Of a DNA stretch of 64,000 nucleotides, positions 11,401-61,581 are shown in pieces. The position numbers and the translations under genes are program-made. Location of the stretch: assembly GCA_965655095.1 (NCBI GenBank), contig OZ296651.1:112220001-112284000 (forward strand), read 5' to 3'. The notes below the pieces were generated by a model. The model was given only the letters and a program-made list of their open reading frames with translations. It was not told the DNA's origin and ran no database searches. Each line of letters begins with the position of its first letter. Positions within the stretch are counted from its first letter, which is position 1. Source of the stretch: Haplodiscus bocki (lineage: Eukaryota).

Positions 11401-11506
11401 TAATTTATTTTATTGACGGGTCCGCGATTGATTAATGATTCATGACCTTTAAAAAACCTACATCGCACACCCGTACCACAAAGCTTGCAAATATGTGAGC
11501 GATGAT

Positions 11507-11966
11507 AGTAGTGTACAAAAAAGCATATGACACCAGCCGCGCAGGCCGCATCCTCATCCGACACCAATCATTCAACAAATTATCCTCCAAAATCACAATA
11601 ATACAACTCATAGGGTGTATAATTAAACAAAAACCAATAAATAAAAATGAAAAAATATAATAATATTCAAATAATTTAAAGAATATAATAAACAAAATTT
11701 ACACTCTATGATTTGTATTATTGTGATTTTGGGGGAGAATTTGTTGAATGGTTGGTGTCGGATGAGGATGCGATCCATTGCGACTGATATCGTATGCTTT
11801 TTTGTACACTACTCTATCGTGAAATTATAATATTTCTTTTTATTAGATAGAATTCTATCATGATACCTCACATTTCTTTGTCCTCGTGAAATATACTTTT
11901 TAGATTTATCATTATTTTTAACATATCTGGTCTTTTCAAATTTTTCTTTCACTTTTACAACCATTT
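11507..11966. repeat. Left TIR of Polinton 1, containing internal hairpin 11507-11813
   Basis: Reverse complement of 20648-21108; arms of about 118 bp (11507-11624, 11696-11813) around an AT-rich spacer. Confidence 0.95.
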
Positions 11967-12000
11967 AAAATATATTCAGTAATAAAAATGGAAGAGGATA

Positions 12001-12675
12001 GATATTCAGAATCTGTGATTTCCAAGGCAAGAGCTTTCCAATGATGCATCATATGTAAGTTTAACTGAAATTTTTATAAATTCTACATGTTCAAGGCTTG
12101 AGGTTTGAAATGGTATCATTCCACATGAGGATCTCGGATCATGGTGATATTCAAAATCTGTGATCTCCAAGTCAAGAGCTTTCCAATGATTTATCATATG
12201 TTAGTTTATCTAAAAATTTATAATCTCTACATGTTTAACGTTTGAGGTTTGTGATGGTATAATTTCATTTCAGTGTGTCGGATCATCGTGATATTCTAAA
12301 TCTATGATCTGCAAATCAAGACCTTTCGAACGATGTATCATATGTAGGTTTACCTTAAACTTTTTTAATCTCTAAATGTTTAAGGTTTTGGGTTTGAGAG
12401 GGCATAATTTCTCCTGTGTATGTCTGATCACGATGATATTTAAAACCTATGATCTCCAAGTCAAGAGCTTTCGAACAATGTATCACATGTATGTTTATAT
12501 GAAATTTTTTTAACCTCTACATGTTTAAGGTTTAGGGTTTGAGATGGTGTAGTTTCACGTGAGAATGTCAGATCAAGGTGATAATAACCATCTGTGATCT
12601 CCAAGTCAAGAGCTTTCCAATGAAGTATCATATGTAGTTTGATCTTAAAGTTTATATTCTCTACATAGTTAAAGT
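12001..12675 (+). repeat. Tandem array, about 4.7 copies of a 144-145 bp unit
   Basis: Core CAAGAGCTTTCCAATGATGTATCATATGT recurs at 12028, 12173, 12317, 12462 and 12607. Confidence 0.92.
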
Positions 12676-12839
12676 ACGTTTTGAAGCGTCCCTAAAACAT
12701 TGAGCTCCATTCCATAATTCCATATATTTCCATATTTCCAAATAATTCCATACTTCACGATTTCTCAAATCGAGGTAATTCCCGAAAATCCTTAAACATG
12801 TGAAGATTACGAAATCAACGAATTTTTAAGCTACAGAAA

Positions 12840-13225
12840 AGTATATTATACCATATCAAAGGTCTTGAAAAATGCAATTCAATGATGATAGTTTCAAAAA
12901 CATTAACCGAAACCTTACTATCGAAAAACCCAAAAAGAACCCTAGGATAACCCTGAAACTTAGTATGTCAATGAAAAAATTTTTAATAATGATGACATAT
13001 TATATATCGTTGAAAAAGTCTTGAAAAGTTCTATTCAGTGATGATATTTTCGAGATCGTTGACTGCAATTATTACCATCGAAAAAACCCAAAAACCCTAA
13101 AAATAACCCTGAAATATGGTTTGTCAATGAAAAAATTTAAATAATAGTGGAGTGTCATACGTCATTAGGAAGGTCTTGAAAAGGGTACTTTAATGACAAT
13201 TTTTTCAAAAACTTCAACCGATTTG
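12840..13225 (-). repeat. Tandem array, about 2.5-3 copies of a 155-156 bp unit with the same core inverted
   Basis: TCTTGA anchors at 12863, 13019 and 13174; e.g. CATACGTCATTAGGAAGGTCTTGA is the reverse complement of the core in the first array. Confidence 0.85.
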
Positions 13226-13269
13226 TAAACCAAACGTAATATTAATTTTTTGTTTACTTTTACAACCAC

Positions 13270-13557
13270 TTAATTATTCATCTCATCATGAATCTTTTTT
13301 TCTTTAATTATTTGGAAAAAGTCTTCACGCAATAATTTAACTTTATCAACTATATTACTAAAGTCCTGAATCCTAAACGAAATATATAAATCATCGAGAA
13401 TACCCAACATATTTACTATTTTCTTTGAGTCAAGATCTTGAAATTTGTCCACTAATACATTTCTAACACAATCAAATTTTTTATAATCATCTTCTTCTAA
13501 ATATCCAACAAAAAACAACTTGTTTGAAAAATACATTATATGATTTAAAGTCTTCAT
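13270..13557 (-). CDS. Polinton accessory protein, unknown function (95 aa)
   Basis: Open ORF starting at TAAATG; similar in pattern to ORF 14077-14379 (MKTLNHIM.../METVKDIL...; DFSNIVD/DFGNIVE). Confidence 0.6.
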   Translation of the reverse strand: MKTLNHIMYFSNKLFFVGYLEEDDYKKFDCVRNVLVDKFQDLDSKKIVNMLGILDDLYISFRIQDFSNIVDKVKLLREDFFQIIKEKKIHDEMNN

Positions 13558-13564
13558 TTATAAT

Positions 13565-14035
13565 TAAAAAAGTATATCTTTGACGACCATTGAAGATACA
13601 AAAACGCCTTTCATGACACTGTTGAACAAATCTTTTTGGTCCATTATATACGTTGTCTCAATCGTTTGCGATTGTTATGCTAAACTTTCTCCATAATATA
13701 GGAACACTTTCACTTCTTGAATAAAAGTTTATGAAATTTTTGTATATCTCTTCCTCTATTATAATCATCAATTCCATAGCTGTAATAAATTTATTCATTC
13801 CGTTTGACGATTGCATTACTATATTAACTCCTCCAACAATGTTATAACTCTCGATCGTAAGATTTTTCGTTTCGTTTTTTATTTTATCAAAAAATTTAAC
13901 GTTACATTTATCATTAACTTTTCCACATTAATTATATCCTTATTTTTGATCGTATTTAAGTCGAGTGTTATTTATAATATGATTTATTTCATTTAATTTT
14001 GGGTTGATAAAAACGTATTCACTAGTAACAATCAT
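13565..14035 (-). pseudogene. Polinton accessory gene remnant
   Basis: Starts TAAATG 'MIVTSEYVFINPKLNEINHII...'; stops and frameshifts; resembles the body of the neighbouring zinc-finger-family ORFs. Confidence 0.45.
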
Positions 14036-14076
14036 TTAAATAATTCATTTTCTTTGAAATAAAATGGTATGAGATA

Positions 14077-14379
14077 TCATTCATGAATAGCTGATTGTTC
14101 TTCTCGACTTACTTTCTCAAATGAGAGCATGTATATTATAATCGATCTTAAATCATGAAATTCTTCGACAATATTTCCGAAATCATTATTATTAATTTTC
14201 AAAAATACATCATCTCTTAAAGATAAAGTTATTAGTATTCTACTAACAGGTATTGTTTGATGAAAAATGTTAATTATATCTTTACGCGCTTGATTTAACT
14301 TCTCAATAATACCTATGTTTTTATAATCAAAAAAGATAGCAGCATTACAAAACTTTAAAATATCTTTTACTGTCTCCAT
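14077..14379 (-). CDS. Polinton accessory protein, unknown function (100 aa), paralog of 13270-13557
   Basis: Open ORF starting at TAAATG; shares motifs with 13270-13557. Confidence 0.6.
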   Translation of the reverse strand: METVKDILKFCNAAIFFDYKNIGIIEKLNQARKDIINIFHQTIPVSRILITLSLRDDVFLKINNNDFGNIVEEFHDLRSIIIYMLSFEKVSREEQSAIHE

Positions 14380-14937
14380 TTAAATGGTAAAAATTTAGTG
14401 TTTTTTTTCCAAAACATTTTGGAAACCAATTATAATCAAAAATAGCATAAACTTCTCCGATAAACTTTTTTATAAGTTTTCTACAAAGCATTGATTTTGG
14501 TTGATCCATATAATGTGAAAATTTCATATTTTGAAGATCGGATTTGAAAATTATATTTATTTCAACAGCTTGTTCAGTTATATTTTTATCAAAATTATCT
14601 AGAAAATCAAGAGGTGGCACTCTTATTACTAATGGTAATTCAATCATGCTTGGCATAAACAAATATGGTTTCTCTAGTGCAATTGTGTTCGGAACAGAAA
14701 TCTTTTTTAAAAGCACTTCATTTTTCTTCCAAATAGGACTTACAGAAAAGTTATCGAATTTCCATTTATGATTATAAAAGTATGGTTGAATGATATCTTT
14801 AAGTTTATCAAATTCAGGGTTTCTTACAACATATTTTTTTATAATCAGATTTGAATAATTTTTATGTTTCTTTGATTGTTAATTATTTTTCTTATTTTTG
14901 TTTTTTTTTTAGTTAGACAAATATTACATTCTCCCAT
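14380..14937 (-). pseudogene. Polinton zinc-finger-headed accessory protein (frameshifted)
   Basis: 'MGECNIC...' start at TAAATG, continuing into ORF 14345-14716 'HYMDQPKSMLCRKL'. Confidence 0.55.
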
Positions 14938-15186
14938 TTATATTTTAAACTTTTCACTTTCCAAATATTCTCTTCTACTAAGTTTCATTTTTAATTTTAT
15001 ATCTAAATCAGTTATTGTAGCACCCATAATATTTATCAATCCTTTAGGAATAACATTCTGAATTAGACTATCATATCCTATTTTCGATTGACATTTATAA
15101 GGTAATCTCATATATCTATCTAACTTATCATTTTTTTAAATTCGTACTTGTAGATCATTTTTAATTACCTTTAAAAAATCATCCAT
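14938..15186 (-). pseudogene. Small Polinton accessory ORF remnant
   Basis: TAAATG start 'MDDFLKVIKNDL', decayed, ending 'SRREYLESEKFKI*' against the next start codon. Confidence 0.4.
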
Positions 15187-15247
15187 TTATCATATGTAGA
15201 ATAATGAGATCTTTTATAAATCATTTCAAGTAGTCTTATTTAAAAAA

Positions 15248-15828
15248 ATGGTTAGTGATAATCAGGAAAATATTTTTTCCGAAGCAGTATTTTGTGACAT
15301 AGGTGATAAATTAATTGAAAATATTTCGAAATGTAGTCAATTGAAAGCTCTCTCATATGAAGAGTTTGATAGATTTGAACACAAAAAATTAACTATTAAA
15401 AACCCAGATATAAATAACAAAAAAATATCATCGATACATTCATTATTGAATATGATTAAAAACATGATTTCTATCCTATAAAATATAATTTCAAATTAGT
15501 GTTTAACAATCTTCAATATGCGGTGATTATTGAAACTAGTCCACAAAACAATCGTATAACAATCTCTTCGGCATATCTTCTGAACGACGCGAATAATGAT
15601 ATTAATAATCAAGGATACACTTTCGATCGTATAGATGAATTTAATATTATAACGATAGCTGATAAAATGGATATGTTGTATCATTTCTATTTTAAACATA
15701 ATATATGTGATTTGGAATGGAAATTATTTGTAATGATAAATAAAAACAAAAATATATTCAAAAAACTAGATCGTAGTAAACATCATCTTCTTATTGGAAC
15801 TTTTTCTAATGTCCCCTTTAAAAATTAA
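15248..15828 (+). pseudogene. Polinton zinc-finger-headed accessory protein (frameshifted)
   Basis: ORFs 15248-15481 and 15499-15828 join through a frameshift; degenerate CDIxDK head; C-terminal 'YFKHNICDLEWKL...KLDRSKHHLLI'. Confidence 0.55.
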
Positions 15829-15831
15829 TAA

Positions 15832-16017
15832 ATGTTTGTGTTAAATATTACAGATGATTATGATAATATGACTTTGACTAATTGTACAGACAATGAAAAT
15901 AATATTGATATAAGTATACCAATATTATTAGTAACAATGCCATGTGGTATATCATTTTTATAATTAATGAGTTTGATGGTATACACATTAAGTGAAACTT
16001 TATTAAGAAAAAATTAA
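15832..16017 (+). pseudogene. Small single-pass membrane protein (about 61 codons, one internal stop)
   Basis: TAAATG start; MFVLNITDDYDNMTLTNCTD followed by hydrophobic 'ISIPILLVTMPCGISFL*LMSLMVYTL'. Confidence 0.5.
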
Positions 16018-16275
16018 AATTATGTCAAATTATTAGATTTCTCTTTTATTAGATGGAATAAAAAATTATGTAAATACACATATAAGTGTACGTATACGAT
16101 TGTATAAAAACGAATATAATTGTATGAAAATTAATTATGACTACATCTCTGATATAAATACAAATATAATTGTATGTATACCTGTAGTATAAATACTCAT
16201 AAAATTGAAAGTATGTTTATTCTATCATAACATCTTGCATTTCTCTGTCCTCGTAAAATATGCTTTATTAAATAA

Positions 16276-17000
16276 ATGGAGAAATTTTTATACCCAAATC
16301 ATCCTGTTAGGTGTATAAGAACCGGACCTAGCAAAAGCGGCAAATCGGTATTTCTAACAAATTTAATTTTAAATATCATAAACGAATATGATAAAACATA
16401 CATCTACTCACCTAGTCTTCATCAAAATATATATCAAAAATTGATTAAATATTTTAGTAATTGTATACCAATTCACAAAATACCAAAAATTCTCAATGAA
16501 GAAGATATTGATTTAGTAATTGATGAGGTAGTTAATAATAAAGGCTTTCAAAAAACTGATACAGAAACAGGAACATGAAAATATAGAAGATTTCAAATTT
16601 CCACAAGAAAATGAAAATAATAGTATTAATGACTTAGACGACCTAAATCAAAAAGAAATGGATGATTCTCGAGTACAAACAATGTTCAAGGGATGTAGAC
16701 ATGATAATTTGTCTAATTTCATCATCTCTCAAGATTACAACGATTAAAGTAAAAAAAAACAATACGCTGCAATGGTAATATCTATCATATATTCAAACCA
16801 AATGTTTTTAGAGGTGTTCAAAATTTTTATCAAGACAAAGATTCAATGGATATGACTCTGAACGAAATCAAAATATTAACAATTACTTGTTGGAATGAAA
16901 AATATCAACCTCTTACAATTGAAATGACTAAAGATCGGTACCAAGGTCGTTATCGAAGGGGATTAAAATCAATATTTGTTCCAAATAGCTCACCCTTTTA
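16276..17000 (+). pseudogene. A32/FtsK-HerA-family DNA packaging ATPase of Polinton (frameshifted)
   Basis: Walker A GPSKSGKS; after a frameshift, Walker B-like 'DLDDL', 'RHDNLSNFIISQDY' and 'TIRCNGN'; ends 'FVPNSSPF*'. Confidence 0.9.
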
Positions 17001-17196
17001 ATATATATAGATACTTACAATAACAATTAAATTTATACTTAATTTTCATATTTGAATAGTTGTAATTATACTTATATTCATTAGATATAATTACAAATAA
17101 GTTAAATTATTCTTACAAGTATAATAATATTCACATAAGGATAGTTGTAATTATACTATAGTGAATTCATATTCGATGATAATTTCAACGTTATAA

Positions 17197-18039
17197 ATGA
17201 GTATTTCTTCTATTGTAATTAAACAGGATTCAATCAATCTACGTAAATTAGCAGAACAACAGAAAAATCAACGAGCTCTTAAAATTGAAAATAGAATTTT
17301 AAAACACACTCACGATATAAAATTACCAAAAAGCTTATCACCTATCATTAAAAATTTAGATGAAGTAAAAGAAACTACTCAAAAGTTAGGAGAAGCAATT
17401 GAAAAATCACAACCTGAAAATAATATACGTCAACCAGCTATTGAACACACTCCACCTCCTCGTCCAATTGAAAATAATGAAGGTAAGGTATATGATACAG
17501 AATTAGAAAATACATTAAAAAATATGAAAAATAATACAGGTTTCTTCCAAACATTTGAAGACCCAGAACAGAGATATGTGGAATGGCTATACTGTTAAAA
17601 TATTAGGTGGAACAGAAGTAGAAATTAACGAAAGAAATATAATATAACTGCAGGTATTCAAAAAGTATTAACCGATACATCTAACATACCTAAGAAAAAA
17701 TTAGTTGATAAAGACAGAGAAAAATTTTGAAATATTTTAGAAAGTCTCGATTTTGAGAATTATAAAGCAATACGTGGTGAATCTAAATCAAGTAGATATA
17801 AAAAATCTAAAACCATTTTTAAAAAACGTAATTTGGAAGGTCAATGAGTAAAAAATATCATACCTGCAAACAACATTGATATCTACACTAGATTAGAAAT
17901 CTTACTAGGTTTGAAAATGTCTGGACACACCGATACTTTTTCGGAAGCAACCAGTTTGAAAGATGAATTATACAAGAGAGGTGAAAAACAAAATGAACAG
18001 CAATATCGGAATGCTCTTAACAAATTTCATGCCCAATAA
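17197..18039 (+). pseudogene. Conserved Polinton coiled-coil/core-type protein (frameshifted)
   Basis: ORF 17197-17598 continues through frameshifts to 'IDIYTRLEILLGLKMSGHTD', resembling the Polinton 'NELxxRLxLL..AGN' tail; lies between the ATPase and the minor capsid gene. Confidence 0.6.
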
Positions 18040-18824
18040 ATGGAAATACCTAGTAAAAATTTAGAACAAATAGCATTTAATACAATACCTAAAAGTGAAG
18101 AGCATATGTTGATAGTTATGGATAAATCTACTCATGAAGAACATCTGGCTCAACCACTTCAAACTAATATTAAATAATTTAAAATCGCAGTGACTTTTAT
18201 AACTGGTTATAATGGAATTTTTGATGTTAAAAATTCAAATACTGAGTTTTATTTCAAGAAAACAGTTACTAACGAAGATGATTTTATTCAGATTAGTATA
18301 CGACCAGGTGCCTATGAAATTGAAGGTTTGAATATTGAAATTAAGAGGATTATTACTGATAAAGGTCATTATAGTGAAAAAGAATAACCGTTCATGATAA
18401 AACCAAATTTTAGTACGCTAGGTAGTATTATAGAAATTCAACCACAAAGACCGATAATTAGTTTTGTGTTTAATGACAGTATTAGCAAAATTTAGGACTT
18501 CATGAGACTATATTATACAAAAAAAAATAATTTATCACCTAGTCCCGTTGATTGTTTATCATTTGGTAAATGTTTTCTCGAATGTGATATTGTTAAAGGA
18601 ATGATTTTCAAAGGTAGGAGAAGTGGTGTCATTCACAATTGGACAATGACAGTCGATCCTGGTTATAAATATGTAGAAAATTTGCAGAAGGTTTAACTCG
18701 GTATATGGCCGAAACTAAAGCTGTTATTTCAAGTATTTTTTTCAAATTTAAAAATGAAAATGACAAATTGCTATCATTCAACGCTCAAAGCTTCTCTTGT
18801 AGAATATCAGACAAAGAAATTTAA
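18040..18824 (+). pseudogene. Minor capsid protein (penton, single jelly-roll) of Polinton
   Basis: 'ISIRPGAYEIEGLN', 'ECDIVKGMIFKG', 'VDPGYKYVE' and 'KNENDKLLSFNAQS' match the Polinton minor-capsid pattern; internal stops. Confidence 0.75.
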
Positions 18825-18839
18825 ATTTCAACATAATAA

Positions 18840-18995
18840 ATGCCCAGAACATTATTAAAATCAAAATTACATTCTAAAAAACAGGAGCCCAGAAACAATT
18901 AATAACCTAATAAAACTAAACCTAATTTACCTCCAAATCTACGAGCAATTAAACAGAAACTATTATCAGGAAATGGTTTTTTAGTATATAAATGA
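18840..18995 (+). pseudogene. Short basic protein ending in a GxG motif
   Basis: MPRTLLKSKLHSKK...KQKLLSGNGF; TAAATG start; internal stops. GxG is the pattern of adenain-type cleavage sites (inference). Confidence 0.4.
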
Positions 18996-19018
18996 GCTTA
19001 GAAGATTTTCAATTATTA
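18992..19018 (+). pseudogene. First nine codons of the next Polinton gene (probably major capsid), truncated
   Basis: TAAATG start, MSLEDFQLL, then interrupted by an insertion; the identity is inferred from gene position. Confidence 0.35.
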
Positions 19019-19211
19019 TGCCGCGGAAAGCGGGTTATTGCAATCACCTTCGTGTGTTTGTTTGTTTGTTTGTTTGTTTGTTTGTTTGTTTGTTTGTTTG
19101 TTAGCAGGATTTCTCATAAACTGCTGGTCGGATTTTGATGAAATTTGGCGAGTAGTGAGGTAATGGTCATAGAAAGACCGAGTTCAAAGTTGGGCGTGAT
19201 CCGAATTGAGC
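19016..19211 (+). mobile_element. Non-autonomous Helentron-type (HINE/DINE-1-like) element, 3'-truncated, with (GTTT)n
   Basis: Starts TTATGCC in a TT context; (GTTT)n at 19056-19102; 'CGGATTTTGATGAAATTTGG' core typical of such elements; higher GC than the flanks. Confidence 0.7.
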
Positions 19212-20639
19212 AATATTCCTCTATTTTGTGTGAGTTTACCTGGTTATACTTGGCAGTGTAGTTTTGAAATATACAGGAATAAACTTACAAACACTTCAAG
19301 ATAAAGGTATGATTTTTTTATTAGAGAATAATATACGTGGTGGGATAAGCAGTATTATGGGAAATCGTTATTAAAAATCAAATGAAAATGAAAAGATAAT
19401 GTATATTGATAGTCCTATTCTTTATGGCCACTCAATGTGTCAATCATTACCTTATGATGAAATCAAATTTGATAAAAATGTTAAGTTAGAAGAAATTTTA
19501 AATACTGCCAAAGATAGTGATATTGGTTATTTCATTGAGGTTGATTTGAAATATCCAGATAATATAAAATATAAAACAAAAAACTTTCCATTTGCTCCTG
19601 TGAATAAGAAAATTGTTCCTGATAAATTTAGTGATTTTATGAGAACAATTAAACCTAATACTTATACTCAAACTAAAAAATTGATAAGTGATTGGTCTAA
19701 TAAGAAAAAATAATTGATTCATTATAGGATGTTAAAATTTATGTTAGACATGGGATGGAAGTAGTAAAAGTTCATACTGTTATTTCATTTAGACAGAGTA
19801 AGTGGTTGGAAAAATATATAAGTGTTAATACTCGAAACGAAATAGGGCTAAAAACGATTTTGAGAAAGACTTCTATAAATTAGTAAATAATGCATTTTAT
19901 GGAAAAACTATGGAAAATATTCGTAATCGAATAAAAGCAGAAGTTATAAAAATAGGTGTTACTGATAAAATTGTAAAACAACAATCTAAATTGACTTTCA
20001 ATGCAATTCATAACTCATATGAAAATTATGATAGCTATACATTCAAACAAAACGAAGTTCTTATGGATAAACCGATATACGTAGGCTTTAGTGTGTTAGA
20101 AATGAGTAAAATATTTTTGTATGAAACATATTATGATATATTACAACAGTATTTTGGTCAGAAAAAGATACAACTACATTATATGGATACAGATAGATTC
20201 GTATTAAGTGTTAATACATAAGATATTATCAAAGACTTAGAAAATTTTGAGGACTTATTTGATTTCAGCAATTTGAATAAAAATCATGAATTATTTAATA
20301 ACAAAAATAAGTAAATGGTAAATTTAAAAATGAAACTCCTAAAAATATTTGGATTGACGAATTTGTTTGTGTAAGAAGTAAGATGTATGCTTTTAAATGT
20401 GGAAATGATAGTAAAAATAAATTAAAAGGTCTTTTTAAAAGTCAATCGAAAAGAAAACAAATTAAAAGAATATAAAAAGTGTTTGAATGGAATGGAAAAT
20501 CAAAGAGAATATAATATTTACATTCTTCATTCAATTAACCATGACAGGCATTTTCATGAAATAAAAAAAATCGACATTATCTTTTTTCGATGATAAACGA
20601 TGTCATATAAACGAAGCTGAAAATAAACCATGGAATTAG
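19212..20639 (+). pseudogene. Protein-primed family B DNA polymerase (pPolB), C-terminal half
   Basis: 'ENNIRGGIS', motif A 'YIDSPILYGHSM', motif B 'KLVNNAFYGKTMEN', motif C 'YMDTD', C-terminal 'FDDKR'; stops and frameshifts. Confidence 0.93.
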
Positions 20640-20647
20640 CACTATGC

Positions 20648-21108
20648 AAATGGTTGTAAAAGTGAAAGAATAATTTAAAAAGACAAGATATGTTAAAAAT
20701 AATGATAAATCTAAAAAGTATATTTTCCGAGGACAAAGAAATACAAGATATCATGATAGAATTCTATCTAGTAAAAAAAAATCTTATAATTTCACGATAG
20801 AGTAGTGTACAAAAAAGCATATGACATCAGTCGCAAGGGATCGCATCTTCATCCGACACCAACCGTTCAACAAATTCTCCCCCAAAATCGCAATAATACA
20901 AATCATAGGGTGTAATTTTTTTTATTATAATCATTAAATTATTTGAATATTATTATATTTTTTTAGTTGTTTATTTATAGGTTTTTGTATATTTATACAC
21001 GCTATGGTTTGTGATATTGTGATTTTGGGGGAAAATTTGTTGAATGGTTGGTGTCGGATGAGGATGCGGCCTGCGCGGCTGGTGTCATTTGCTTTTTTGT
21101 ACACTACT
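20648..21108. repeat. Right TIR of Polinton 1, containing internal hairpin 20801-21108
   Basis: Reverse complement of 11507-11966; AGTAGT at 20801 and ACTACT at 21103-21108. Confidence 0.95.
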
Positions 21109-21211
21109 GATGGTTACATACAGTATACTGTATGTAATCATCGTTCACTTATTTGCAAACTTTGTGGTTGGGGTGTGCAATTGTAGATTTTTTAAAAGTC
21201 ATTTCCAAATG

Positions 21212-21416
21212 TTTTGTGGAATATTATCTTATTGAATGGGTTGAGACTTAGTTGAAACACTGAAAATAAGTATTCATTTTGAAAAAGAGTATGCATGTAA
21301 CAGAAAATAAGTATACTTTTTTTCTGTTACATGTATACTCTTTTTCAGAAAAAAATAGTTACTTTCAGTGTTTCAGCTAAGCCGCAACCTCTTCAATAAG
21401 ATAATATTTCACAAAA
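21212..21416. repeat. About 205-bp imperfect palindrome (fold-back element)
   Basis: TTTTGTGGAATATTATCTTATTGAA ... TTCAATAAGATAATATTTCACAAAA, centre AAGTA|TACTT. Confidence 0.85.
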
Positions 21417-21442
21417 TAATTGCAAATGAAAACTGATTCAAG

Positions 21443-40949: not shown

Positions 40950-42290
40950 CGATGATCAACAATATTATTAAGATTCTCAATTAAAAGATGCTGGTCGTTT
41001 ATACGGTAGTGCTATTGTTCGAAAAACAGGTTTTGAAAGATCTACTGAAGCTGATTTTGATCCACAAGTTAAAAAAACTGTGACACTAATGCATTTCTAA
41101 TGAAAAAACATAATTTTAGAGACCTTTTTTCCTTCTATGCAAAGTTTGAACGTAATTTTTTGATGCACAAGAATCTTTCCCAACTTTAAATGTGAATGAT
41201 GTTCGCATAAACCTAAGACAAAAACAATTATCAACTCGAAAGTGCATAAACATTATATATTTGCAACCTGAATAGTTAGGAAAAGGGTCCGGTTGGAGGT
41301 AATTAAGACTATAAAGTATGGATGTCACACAATCTAAATTAGGCATTTTAGGAGGCACGAGTTATGTAGAACTTCCTATAAACCATAGGTCAGCTATGAA
41401 CGTAAGAGATACAAAAAACAATTATTGTTCTATTTGGTGTAATTCAAATCGTTTACATCCTGCAAAAGCAAATGTTTCTTTAAAAAGAAGCTATGTAAAA
41501 CAATTTAGCACCATAAACATAAATGGTAAAAACTGGACAATGGACTATAAATCAAAGCCATCCCCATATTAGAAAAATTGAAAGAAATATCAACACACGC
41601 CTTTGACATAGATGACGAGGAATTACAGCTTGCATGCGGCTTGGCTTCTTACTATTATACAAATCAAAAAGCAAAACCAATTTTCTGAGGAGAAAATTGT
41701 AGGTTTGTTTCCATATAGAAATCGTTATTGTTCAAGTAAAAAATCACAAACTTTCATTGGATGAAAAACAGAGAAGAAAATTTTTTTCTGTACTTTTTCA
41801 ACAGATGATGTAAAATCAATCGCCATAAAAGATGTTTAGAACAATAACCTCGTTTATTGAATTTTCAAATAGAAGTTTCCTTTGCATTTAAGAACTTCAA
41901 TAAAAAACACCACAATACTTTGTCGGTATTGCTGATTTCCAATGTATGAGCAAAATACCTTCTAACACAAATACTAGTAAAATAAACAACAGTTTTCTAT
42001 GAACTAATTGCTTTTAGCTGGAGTTTGACAATAGTTTTTTGAGTAAAAAATCTTTTGAAAAATAGTTAACAACGATACTTAGGTACTTAGGCCCATTTAA
42101 TGTGACAGAATTTGTAGAGACTATATTACCTTTAGGATAAAGAATGAGAGTGAGTTTCATAAAAAATTTGAAAAGAACAATATCGAAAAAAGTGAAGAAA
42201 AATTTGGAAACGCAGAAACATGAATTGTGTTGGATGTGCGAACAACCGTTTTTACTCAGAGCCAAAAATAGAACAAAACAAAGTGAAAAG
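40950..42290 (+). pseudogene. pPolB N-terminal region of Polinton 2, truncated
   Basis: 'GSGW', 'GTSYVELP', 'NNYCSIWC..RLHP' (41318-41572) and 'CWMCEQPF' are typical of Polinton pPolB N-terminal regions. Confidence 0.75.
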
Positions 42291-59554: not shown

Positions 59555-59954
59555 TGTTTATATTATTATTTATTGTGTCGGCGCGGGAATAATCACTTTG
59601 ATATCCATTTCCGACTGACCAGACACGTATATTTTCCGTCGAAAGATGGAAAAGACGCGGTCTGTAAAGGACGAAATGGAGGGAAATGTGTTTATTTCCC
59701 GCCAGAGTCGGCATATTTTCTTTGAAATTATTATGATTAAAGTACTTTTCCCTACTTTGTACCTTTACTTGGCGTGTAAACAATTATGTTTCCCGCCAAG
59801 GAAAAGGTATAAATAGGAGAAACGAAAGTACTAAGGGGAGACCCTTAATATCATTTTGATTATCAGTTGACTGTACGGATTGCGACTAGTTGTTTATTTT
59901 AAAGAATAACATTTTTGTAAAACTCTCAACTTGATTAACAAATACAAACTAATT
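59555..59954 (+). promoter_or_regulatory. Putative 5' LTR with TATA box (TATAAATA 59808-59815)
   Basis: TATA box upstream of gag; no second LTR copy in the window, so the edges are inferred. Confidence 0.5.
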
Positions 59955-59991
59955 CAGTCTTCATAACTGCGTAGCATTTTTCCCTTCAAAA

Positions 59992-61581
59992 ATGGCAACG
60001 TTGAGAAACAAACGAAAGTTGGCAGCCGTTACAAGAGAAACACAAGAGGAAAATCCTGGGAACGGCCAGTCACGAAACACGTCCGTTCCTAGAATTAACG
60101 AGGAATATATCACACAAATTTCTGAGGAGATTGAAGGCAGAATCTCTAAAAAACTGTCCCAGGAGTTCAGCAGGACAGGGTCTCGCATTTTGGGTGCTCT
60201 GTCTAAATTAGACGAGTTTCTTCTGAACCAGCAGATACGGACGCACTACGGAACCGTTCCGGAAACATTCCGGAACACAAACGTGGGAAACCAGGGAACG
60301 AATGAGGACGACTCCCAGAGTGATCCTCATCCTGAAGCAGGCATCTTCTGCGGCCAGACTACACAAAAATCAGGCCCAAAAGAATGTCGTGACATGGTGA
60401 CAGGAGTTACAGAACAAACACGCAACGGTCATTACATGGTGACAGGAGCTACAGAATGCCCTGACATGGTGACAGGAGCTACAGGAGAGATTCGTCAGTG
60501 TCGTGACATGGTAACAGGAGATTCAGAAGAGATTCGCAATGGCCATGACATGGTGACAGCAGTTCAAGAAGAGATTCCCTACTGCTCCTTTGGAATTTCC
60601 TCAGGAAAACAAAAGAAGGCGCGCTCCACAAGTCAGCCACAATTTCACAGTGACAACACCCCTGCGACAATTGAAGCAGACCAGATTTTGTTGGCCCTTC
60701 AGCAATTGCCGAGGAGCAGTATTTCTGCCAATGTCAATAACAACAGTAACAGAATCTCGAAACTGCCTAAATCCCTCACGACAACAATGCCCACCTTCGA
60801 CGGGAAATCAGAGAAGTTTGAACTGTTTGAAGATTTATTCCAAACGAGTCTGAAAATCCACAATCAGCTAACAGACGAAGACAAAATAAACTATTTCCAC
60901 TCTCTCATGCGTGGTGATGCGCTGCAGACGTTCAAAAACATCAGCAGCCCGAACCGAGAGAATCTGACAGAAATTCTGACTGTGTTCCGTAGAAAATACG
61001 TGAAACCTCAGTCAATGGCTACGGCAAAACACAAATTTCAACAATTAGTCTTCAATCCAGCGAACCAGAAGTTAATTGATTTTTTGGACGAACTCCAGAA
61101 ATTGGCAAAAGATGCGTTCGGAGTTGCTGCCCAAGCAATCATTGACCAATTCATATATGCCAAGATGCCTCCACACCTGAAGAAATCAATAAACCAGGCC
61201 CACTTGGAGAACGGCACGTATGGACAGATTGTGACACACCTCGAAAGGGAATTAGAGCTAAACAGTTTGGAATATCCTGATGAAACTCAGATGAACACTG
61301 TGATGCACAAACAGCAAAATGAAGGCAACCCAGATGATGCTGGAAATTTCAACAGCGACACAAACGACTCTAACCCCAAAAACAATGAAAGTGACAGAAA
61401 ATCTAGAACTCTCTACCCTCCCTGTGAGACATGTGACAAAACGAACCACTCTACAGAGAGATGTTATGTTGGAGCCAATGCAGCAAATAGGCCACTTCCC
61501 TGGAAAAACAAACCTCAAGAACAGGACGCACACGACAGTGTAACTGGTTGTGCCTTGGCTGCAGCCCAATCTCTAAACTAG
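59992..61581 (+). CDS. Retrotransposon Gag protein (529 aa)
   Basis: Longest intact ORF; capsid-like 'MPTFDGKSEKFELFEDLF...RGDALQTF'; zinc knuckle CETCDKTNHSTERC (CX2CX4HX4C). Confidence 0.92.
   Translation: MATLRNKRKLAAVTRETQEENPGNGQSRNTSVPRINEEYITQISEEIEGRISKKLSQEFSRTGSRILGALSKLDEFLLNQQIRTHYGTVPETFRNTNVGNQGTNEDDSQSDPHPEAGIFCGQTTQKSGPKECRDMVTGVTEQTRNGHYMVTGATECPDMVTGATGEIRQCRDMVTGDSEEIRNGHDMVTAVQEEIPYCSFGISSGKQKKARSTSQPQFHSDNTPATIEADQILLALQQLPRSSISANVNNNSNRISKLPKSLTTTMPTFDGKSEKFELFEDLFQTSLKIHNQLTDEDKINYFHSLMRGDALQTFKNISSPNRENLTEILTVFRRKYVKPQSMATAKHKFQQLVFNPANQKLIDFLDELQKLAKDAFGVAAQAIIDQFIYAKMPPHLKKSINQAHLENGTYGQIVTHLERELELNSLEYPDETQMNTVMHKQQNEGNPDDAGNFNSDTNDSNPKNNESDRKSRTLYPPCETCDKTNHSTERCYVGANAANRPLPWKNKPQEQDAHDSVTGCALAAAQSLN

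Follow-up and report, generated by a model that had tools for sequence, protein, structure and literature searches.

Doubled, self-complementary ends in a Polinton family of the Haplodiscus bocki genome assembly

Polintons (Mavericks) are elements of about 17 to 20 kb that, as described in the available portions of PMC8097293, PMC11161782, and PMC10748475, are bounded by terminal inverted repeats (TIRs) with (AGT)2//(ACT)2 ends and by 6-bp target site duplications. They encode a protein-primed polymerase B (pPolB) with an N-terminal terminal-protein-like (TP-like) region, a vOTU, and an inserted nuclease, along with an rve integrase, an A32 ATPase, and a double jelly-roll capsid protein. A family with these features, the TP-like region and the vOTU being represented by sequence signatures, resides in a 1.5-Gb eukaryotic assembly (here G000; Haplodiscus bocki, GCA_965655095.1), and one copy occupies positions 11507 to 21108 of the 64,000-nucleotide stretch analyzed here (the window; contig OZ296651.1, positions 112,220,001 to 112,284,000). 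Unlike in described Polintons, the TIR of this family opens with a fold-back of 267 to 583 bp, referred to below as the cassette, that holds a second full end motif.

Terminal palindromes are known from relatives of Polintons. Halocafeteria virophages (subtypes 1, 2, 5, and 6) and a Polinton-like virus (PLV; subtype 4) carry them at their TIR ends, 52 nt long in the figured case (bioRxiv 10.64898/2026.07.28.741278, in the section available to us). As in the G000 family, those palindromes lie in the TIR beside the target duplication of integrated Polinton relatives, and a role in hairpin priming has been proposed for them. They differ in being 52 nt long rather than consisting of arms of about 110 bp plus a loop; the replication genes there are mostly not pPolB, whereas the G000 family has a pPolB with protein-priming signatures; and that section of the preprint holds no analysis of a fixed asymmetric patch, of co-variation, or of orientation. 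In parvoviruses, the left end of minute virus of mice (MVM) is a fold-back of 100 to 200 nt whose mismatch bubble makes the arms nonequivalent, and some ends occur in a single orientation (PMC1185569 and PMC8242256, available text). The G000 family differs in its double-stranded DNA (dsDNA) virus gene set, with its own polymerase and integrase, and in having both ends alike; neither an NS1/Rep nickase nor another HUH/Rep gene was matched in Pfam scans of its open reading frames (ORFs), which are fragmented. Streptomyces telomeres likewise belong to a protein-primed linear replicon that rebuilds a truncated 3' end by extending it along a folded-back copy of the terminal sequence (PMC5449611, available text), but they are bacterial, comprise several short palindromes, use a dedicated Tap primase, and do not integrate. 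In poxviruses, conserved mismatches in the terminal hairpin carry a function, there packaging (PMC8956199, available text); those ends are covalently closed and exist in flip and flop forms, in contrast to the G000 family, in which no flip was seen.

An earlier reading of the window made from the sequence only had taken the architecture to be undescribed. For a pPolB-encoding Polinton we found no doubled ends in print, with the proviso that Repbase, supplements, and subscription papers may hold TIR descriptions that bear on the point. The available text of PMC8097293 and PMC8502044 mentions neither hairpins nor palindromes, that of PMC10748475 mentions no hairpins, and that of PMC11296320 mentions them for poxvirus only. 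The supposition nevertheless has to be narrowed, given the terminal palindromes and the hairpin-priming model reported for protist virophages and PLVs: one direct precedent was found, simpler in form and in distant protist relatives.

At both termini of the window element, the self-complementary cassettes described in the sequence-only reading are present and fold strongly. The left cassette (11507 to 11813, 307 bp) has a fold of -100.6 kcal/mol (z -24) and the right one (20801 to 21108, 308 bp) a fold of -88.1 kcal/mol (z -18.3), with 0 of 100 shuffles as good in either case. All four arms begin AGTAGTGTACAAAAAAGCA and differ in a single patch about 23 to 45 nt from the tip, where GACACCAGCCGCGCAGGCCGCATC stands in the two outer arms and GAYATCAGTCGCAAKGGATCGCATC in the two inner ones, exactly the asymmetry noted before. 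The TIR continues about 153 bp inward beyond the cassette. One record of short-read contigs (X1 record 5) spans the junction between inner arm and interior (11748 to 11854) with zero differences, and short-read contigs, which may derive from the source sample, back pieces of the cassette. Neither an empty-site joint nor a free element end was listed among these contigs. Because of this support and of dozens of independent insertion sites, an assembly artifact is excluded as the source of the doubling. The element sits off-center within a host palindrome of about 140 bp, and because this palindrome was the insertion target, the flanks of the window copy are themselves inverted; the flanks at 11448 to 11506 and 21137 to 21195 were considered as a longer TIR and rejected.

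Doubled ends are found across the family. The 23-nt end motif has 1957 exact matches genome-wide (997 + 960), and with this motif alone as the criterion we sampled 78 places among the first 100 listed matches (contig C1, 0 to 80 Mb), leaving out six matches in an already sampled cluster. A facing partner arm was present at 59 of the 78 ends, a share that is somewhat high because doubled ends have two chances of a motif match. The remaining 19 were judged by reading to be 15 ordinary single ends and 4 broken or gapped ones, and at 18 of the 19 there was no partner arm within about 4 kb. Ordinary single ends in other members had been named as what would reduce the doubling in the window element to a one-off duplication; the doubling proves to be family-wide, but not universal. 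Combining the 30 best similarity matches, the 59 sampled ends, and two metagenome contigs gave a set of 91 cassettes with a median stem of 111 and loops of 14 to 363 nt at 16% GC. All 15 single ends bear the outer-type patch. Some single ends belong to complete elements, three single-ended elements carry perfect target duplications, and doubling is therefore dispensable.

Outside the assembly, viral contigs gave no match to the end motif. The four metagenome matches were two chance bacterial ones and two doubled cassettes (L149 and L151), whose arms are unlike those of G000 family members; the L151 cassette, on a short contig, has the outer-type patch on both arms and hardly any asymmetry. A 19-nt iteron-like motif (ATCAATGG...GTACACAGG), present in one to three direct copies and always in one orientation, occurs in the single-ended TIRs L063, L066, L071, L078, L081, L105, L108, L110, L126, and L127 and also within 14 of the 91 cassette loops. 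In the doubled end L088, the inner ACTACT abuts interior sequence that follows the iteron-like motif in single-ended L110, hinting that this comparison may mark the site of interconversion between single and doubled states. L085 and L086 were considered as two ends of one half-doubled element and rejected, as they have no target duplication and their TIRs diverge after about 75 nt.

Target duplications are confined to the outer ends. In 26 end pairs, the outer flanks match at 6/6 positions in 15, at 5/6 in 3, at 4/6 in 3, and at fewer in 5; inverted flanks replace the target duplication in three end pairs. The duplicated hexamer shows a target-site bias toward A2, C3, G4, and T5 (symmetrized counts, outer flanks of 61 elements). 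No cassette of the 91 has matching hexamers on both sides, as a solo cassette with its own target duplication would. Orientation is also fixed: the outer-type patch faces the host in every one of the 87 cassettes (of 91) whose shared flanks reveal which side is interior, the other four being two with interior-like flanks, one truncated, and one on a contig too short. Genome-wide, 363 occurrences of the conserved interior anchor lead into an inner-type start and 12 into an outer-type start, and those 12 resolve into eight inner-type variants, one truncated case, one fully converted inner arm, and two cases of a fossil junction described below. Flipped cassettes numbered 0 of the 87 decidable and 0 of the 12 genome-wide candidates. 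With target duplications at outer ends only, no solo cassettes, and no flipped ones, three uses of the doubled ends offered in the sequence-only reading fail and were dropped: release of the cassette as a miniature inverted-repeat transposable element (MITE); excision or integration at the inner ends; and flip/flop hairpin telomeres of the poxvirus or adeno-associated virus type.

The two arms of a cassette share most of the stem and keep the patch apart. Across the 26 end pairs, patch differences sort by arm type in 175 cases and by end in none, and differences in the distal stem sort 74 by arm type and 8 by end. With one cassette taken from each of 41 elements, the distal stem of an outer arm has an identity of 0.86 with the inner arm of its own cassette, against 0.66 with other outer arms, and this partner arm lies above the mean of the others in 41/41; in the patch, the order is reversed, with 0.66 for the partner arm and 0.81 for other outer arms. 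Of 574 distal variants, 429 have a mirror change in the partner arm (shuffled mean 0.21, maximum 0.33; 40 elements, 500 shuffles), and different subfamilies mirror wholly different distal sequences. The mismatch patch of about 20 nt remains arm-specific across both capsid lineages of the family, and the inner signature (GAYRTC...GATC) is present in both. Inner AGTAGT motifs are intact in 53 of 61 elements and outer ones in 51 of 61. The filler of 2 to 8 nt after the inner ACTACT comes in 21 variants among 52 scorable elements and differs between the two ends of one element in 7 of 21 pairs. The 3' strand form of the hairpin is the more stable in 60 of the 91 cassettes, which are not independent, with a mean difference of -1.4 kcal/mol; like the wobble pairs considered below, this does not pick out a strand. 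The end architecture is conserved across a large Polinton family and looks selected.

On one strand, two junctions look like a 3' end that folded onto the inner arm and was briefly extended. Near 21.60 Mb of contig C8, 48 nt of inverted interior abuts a complete outer arm with nothing in between; this one event is present as three copies in tandem, and the inverted 48 nt match the element's own inner flanks at 40 to 43 of 48 positions. Near 197.0 Mb of contig C1, 40 nt of inverted interior (100% identical) is followed by a cassette in which both arms carry the inner-type patch; the left end of this element has been trimmed to a point just beyond the patch. The surrounding tandem array, 13.4 kb long and 99.9% identical, could include assembly duplication. 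A template switch between homologous arms gives the same product, so we treat these fossil junctions as moderate evidence. Elsewhere, some otherwise normal elements have an inverted duplicate of one host flank at their opposite end, over about 1.8 kb in L120/L121, 1.6 kb in L112/L113, and 0.1 kb in L076/L077 (contig C1, 74.4, 69.4, and 26.1 Mb) and over only 40 nt in L212/L213 (contig C12, 1.48 Mb). In such cases the TIR therefore looks extended into host DNA, and the target duplication is lost. At L046 to L049 (contig C1, 16.44 to 16.48 Mb), the right end, the capsid gene, and the host flank are repeated with a 4.29-kb period.

Doubled copies retain a complete polymerase N-terminal region. 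The Ser of its Ser-Gly-Trp motif is present in 58 of 61 relatives and in 14 of 17 doubled copies, a placement that fits the description of the linking residue in the available text of PMC11161782, and a vOTU-type Cys is invariant and a His conserved. Protein priming therefore appears to be retained, judging by these TP-type and vOTU signatures. An ESM Atlas search with the polymerase N terminus returned unnamed clusters only.

Protein-primed polymerases initiate at short terminal repeats and displace one strand. Strand-displacement replication by the probably protein-primed polymerase of this family would leave the element end single-stranded, and the displaced 3' end would then fold back, through its terminal stretch of about 110 bp, on the inverted inner copy. 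That copy would likely be a built-in template or primer restoring the AGTAGT origin, the fixed mismatch patch would likely keep the integrase from mistaking the inner copy for an end, and the arms would stay alike through copying between them. We infer, giving it an even chance of being right, that the displaced 3' end uses the inner copy as a template or primer close at hand and that the patch blocks use of this copy as an integration end. Streptomyces telomeres (PMC5449611, available text) are a precedent for such fold-back repair in a replicon with a terminal protein. A hairpin role for the doubled ends, already raised in the sequence-only reading, is the best account of the architecture, the co-variation of the arms, the fixed orientation, and the fossil junctions taken together.

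Several observations weigh against local templating by the inner copy. All copies examined are degraded, and the evidence consists of genomic copies rather than replicating DNA. In the distal stem, the own inner arm equals or exceeds the best other outer arm in just 19 of 41 elements, the variant shuffle ignores relatedness, and gene conversion can explain mirrored variants without selection for pairing. Fossil junctions are rare, and a generic template switch between homologous arms at a fragile palindrome would account for both of them equally well. Among the patch conversions, most go from outer to inner (L023, L024/L028, L120/L121, L211, and contig C2 at 49 Mb), a direction that 3' repair from the inner arm leaves unexplained. 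G-T wobble pairs outside the patch (20 versus 14, p 0.39) show no preference for the 3' hairpin. There are single-ended elements that have the same polymerase type and perfect target duplications, and no gene correlate of doubling was found among the compared copies; an Endo VII motif occurs in 8/8 doubled and in 7/8 single-type stretches, the eighth of which has no genes. Endo VII was accordingly set aside as a partner of doubled ends, being present in both kinds and not diagnostic. On a PolB DNA tree of 25 of 27 stretches (the two without a PolB stretch were left out), doubling needs five changes, of which supported branches demand at least four, and its clustering is no stronger than chance would give (86 of 500 shuffles scored as low).

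A single origin of the doubled state was thus not recovered on the PolB tree. The two capsid lineages have ATPases of about 27% identity and a common polymerase type, and each has doubled and single ends. Since the inner signature is common to both, one old origin followed by repeated loss or swapping seems the likelier history. Doubling is optional, with several losses or swaps in its history, and the single-ended transposers and scattered trait changes make it nonessential.

The resemblance in hairpin size and bubble to parvovirus ends (PMC8242256, available text) raises the possibility, which we consider unlikely, of a rolling hairpin, in which the 3' hairpin would be the main primer and palindromic dimers would be resolved by an asymmetric cut at the patch, for which the polymerase's Endo VII domain is a possible nuclease, with one orientation kept as at the MVM left end. 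In MVM, it is the bubble that determines which of the two dimer-bridge arms serves as origin (PMC1185569, available text); in the G000 family the cassette orientation is fixed, the junction fossils resemble a dimer bridge, and the PolBs of the family and its relatives have Endonuclease_7 matches, below the curated cut-off. The same model has been proposed for the virophage and PLV palindromes (10.64898/2026.07.28.741278, section available). It sits poorly with the intact terminal-protein and vOTU signatures, the Endo VII of single-ended elements, the lack of a HUH/Rep match in the Pfam scans noted above, and inverted extensions of just 40 to 48 nt in the fossils. A hybrid cycle, with protein priming at the outer AGTAGT, parvovirus-style self-priming from the asymmetric hairpin at the terminus, and dimers resolved at the patch by Endo VII, would in our judgment be doubtful too. 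It is quite unlikely that the inner copy is instead a second site acting in duplex DNA, an inverted binding or initiation element (origin, packaging signal, or promoter) whose arms are homogenized by conversion and whose hairpin is incidental. Such a site would suit a patch conserved as sequence in an arm-specific motif, the free loop length (14 to 363 nt), and wobble pairs without strand bias, but it leaves unexplained both the mirroring of about 65 bp of subfamily-specific distal sequence and the fold-back-like junctions.

We consider it improbable that an old inverted duplication has merely hitchhiked with a successful lineage, the patch being degeneration that made the inner end harmless. 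Single-ended relatives do transpose and doubling was repeatedly lost, as expected of a neutral feature; yet intact copies of AGTAGT are as frequent on inner arms as on outer ones, the inner signature is common to lineages with ATPases about 27% identical, and long palindromes are expected to be costly, with inverted flank duplications in 3 of 26 end pairs. The two complete end motifs per cassette could also suggest a composite element of two MITE-like cassettes, alternative inner excision ends, or an assembly artifact. We hold these to be very improbable in the face of 0/91 solo cassettes, a fixed orientation, target duplications at the outer ends, independent insertion sites, and short-read contigs.

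Polinton replication and end regeneration have not been experimentally shown, and, according to the available text of PMC11161782, even the removal of the terminal protein before integration is unclear. The family is a natural experiment: in hundreds of copies two near-identical ends lie adjacent, only one of them is ever used for integration, and the difference between them maps to a patch of about 20 nt, which is a direct candidate for the signal recognized by the integrase or at the origin. Natural controls are provided by single-ended sisters that have a polymerase of the same type. The family extends terminal fold-backs from protist virophages and PLVs to a pPolB-encoding Polinton, and its inverted flank duplications and tandem arrays suggest that fold-back ends may drive host rearrangements. 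The hybrid cycle, if true, would place the family as a natural link from dsDNA viruses that replicate by protein priming to single-stranded DNA viruses with hairpin ends, such as bidnavirids.

The family is identified as Polinton, in agreement with the sequence-only reading, by its TIRs and ends, target duplications, and gene set. The TIRs are long and have (AGT)2//(ACT)2 termini, and the target duplication, 5/6 in the window, is mostly 6/6 in family pairs. Full copies of about 17 to 20 kb encode an ATPase, a double jelly-roll capsid protein, an rve integrase, and a pPolB with an Endonuclease_7 insert; all copies examined are fragmented. DJR-like_dom was matched in L040 (E 3.4e-8) and Pox_A32 in four copies and the window. 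The integrase was counted as present on an rve match (E 0.0014, below the cut-off) to a broken frame of a full copy, and integrase pieces were found in most full copies; the polymerase was likewise counted on a DNA_pol_B_2 match to a fragment (E 0.0014, below the cut-off). Natural, near-full-length polymerase relatives occur in other assemblies at 78 to 84% identity, some annotated PF03175. No adenain-type maturation protease was matched among 85 ORF pieces of at least 118 amino acids from seven degraded copies, fragmentation lowering the sensitivity. Left and right outer arms are 0.88 to 1.00 identical (20 pairs), and the insertions are therefore of mixed ages. Most copies of the main capsid lineage have an ORF upstream of the integrase (L036, 802 to 1320) that looks HNH-like by eye and has no Pfam match.

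The window element is, from its sequence, a non-autonomous Polinton/Maverick copy degraded by internal deletion (Table 1). The deletion of roughly 10 kb took out the genes for capsid, HNH-like protein, and integrase, together with about 60% of the pPolB gene from its 5' side; the 3' part is retained, with a tblastn match spanning only residues 741 to 1214 of the natural relative P0016.

Table 1. Features of the element and its immediate flanks, in window coordinates
Feature	Position	Strand	Remarks
Polinton/Maverick copy, internally deleted, non-autonomous	11507..21108	.	9.6 kb; full copies about 17-20 kb
Target site duplication, left copy, GATGAT	11501..11506	+	5/6 match with 21109-21114
Target site duplication, right copy, GATGGT	21109..21114	+	
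Left TIR, 460 bp	11507..11966	+	424/459 aligned bases identical to right TIR
Right TIR, 461 bp	20648..21108	-	
Left outer arm, true end	11507..11624	+	AGTAGT start; outer-type patch about 11529-11549
Left cassette loop, AT-rich	11625..11694	.	
Left inner arm, inverted second end copy	11695..11813	-	Inner-type patch about 11771-11791; terminates ACTACT
Junction, hypervariable, 2-8 nt	11814..11816	+	Separates inner ACTACT from conserved TCGTGAAA-like interior anchor
Right inner arm	20801..20914	+	AGTAGT start, inner-type patch
Right cassette loop, AT-rich	20915..20995	.	70-81 nt, set by pairing of AT-rich base
Right outer arm, true end	20996..21108	-	Terminates ACTACT
Host palindrome (~140 bp), right part	21109..21195	.	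Left part 11448-11506; outside element
Tandem array, 145-bp unit, 4.7 copies	12001..12674	+	In element; also in some full copies
Tandem repeat, 156-bp unit	12858..13145	+	In element
A32-type packaging ATPase gene, broken, three frames	16276..17001	+	Pox_A32 E 8.7e-5 and 0.002, below curated cut-off
Conserved ORF, broken	18184..18821	+	In full copies precedes major capsid gene
Approximate breakpoint of roughly 10-kb deletion	18982..19203	.	blastn against full copies
Annotated stretch 3' of deletion breakpoint	19218..20636	+	

Elsewhere in the window, a second host palindrome with 88-nt arms and a 37-nt perfect-center pair lies just to the right of the element (21199 to 21429). Another AT-rich stretch (41282 to 41791) has a weak match (25%, E 8e-8) to the polymerase vOTU region and is possibly a second, distant Polinton remnant. 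Positions 59953 to 61581 hold a 542-amino-acid ORF that, judged by eye, resembles a retrotransposon Gag.

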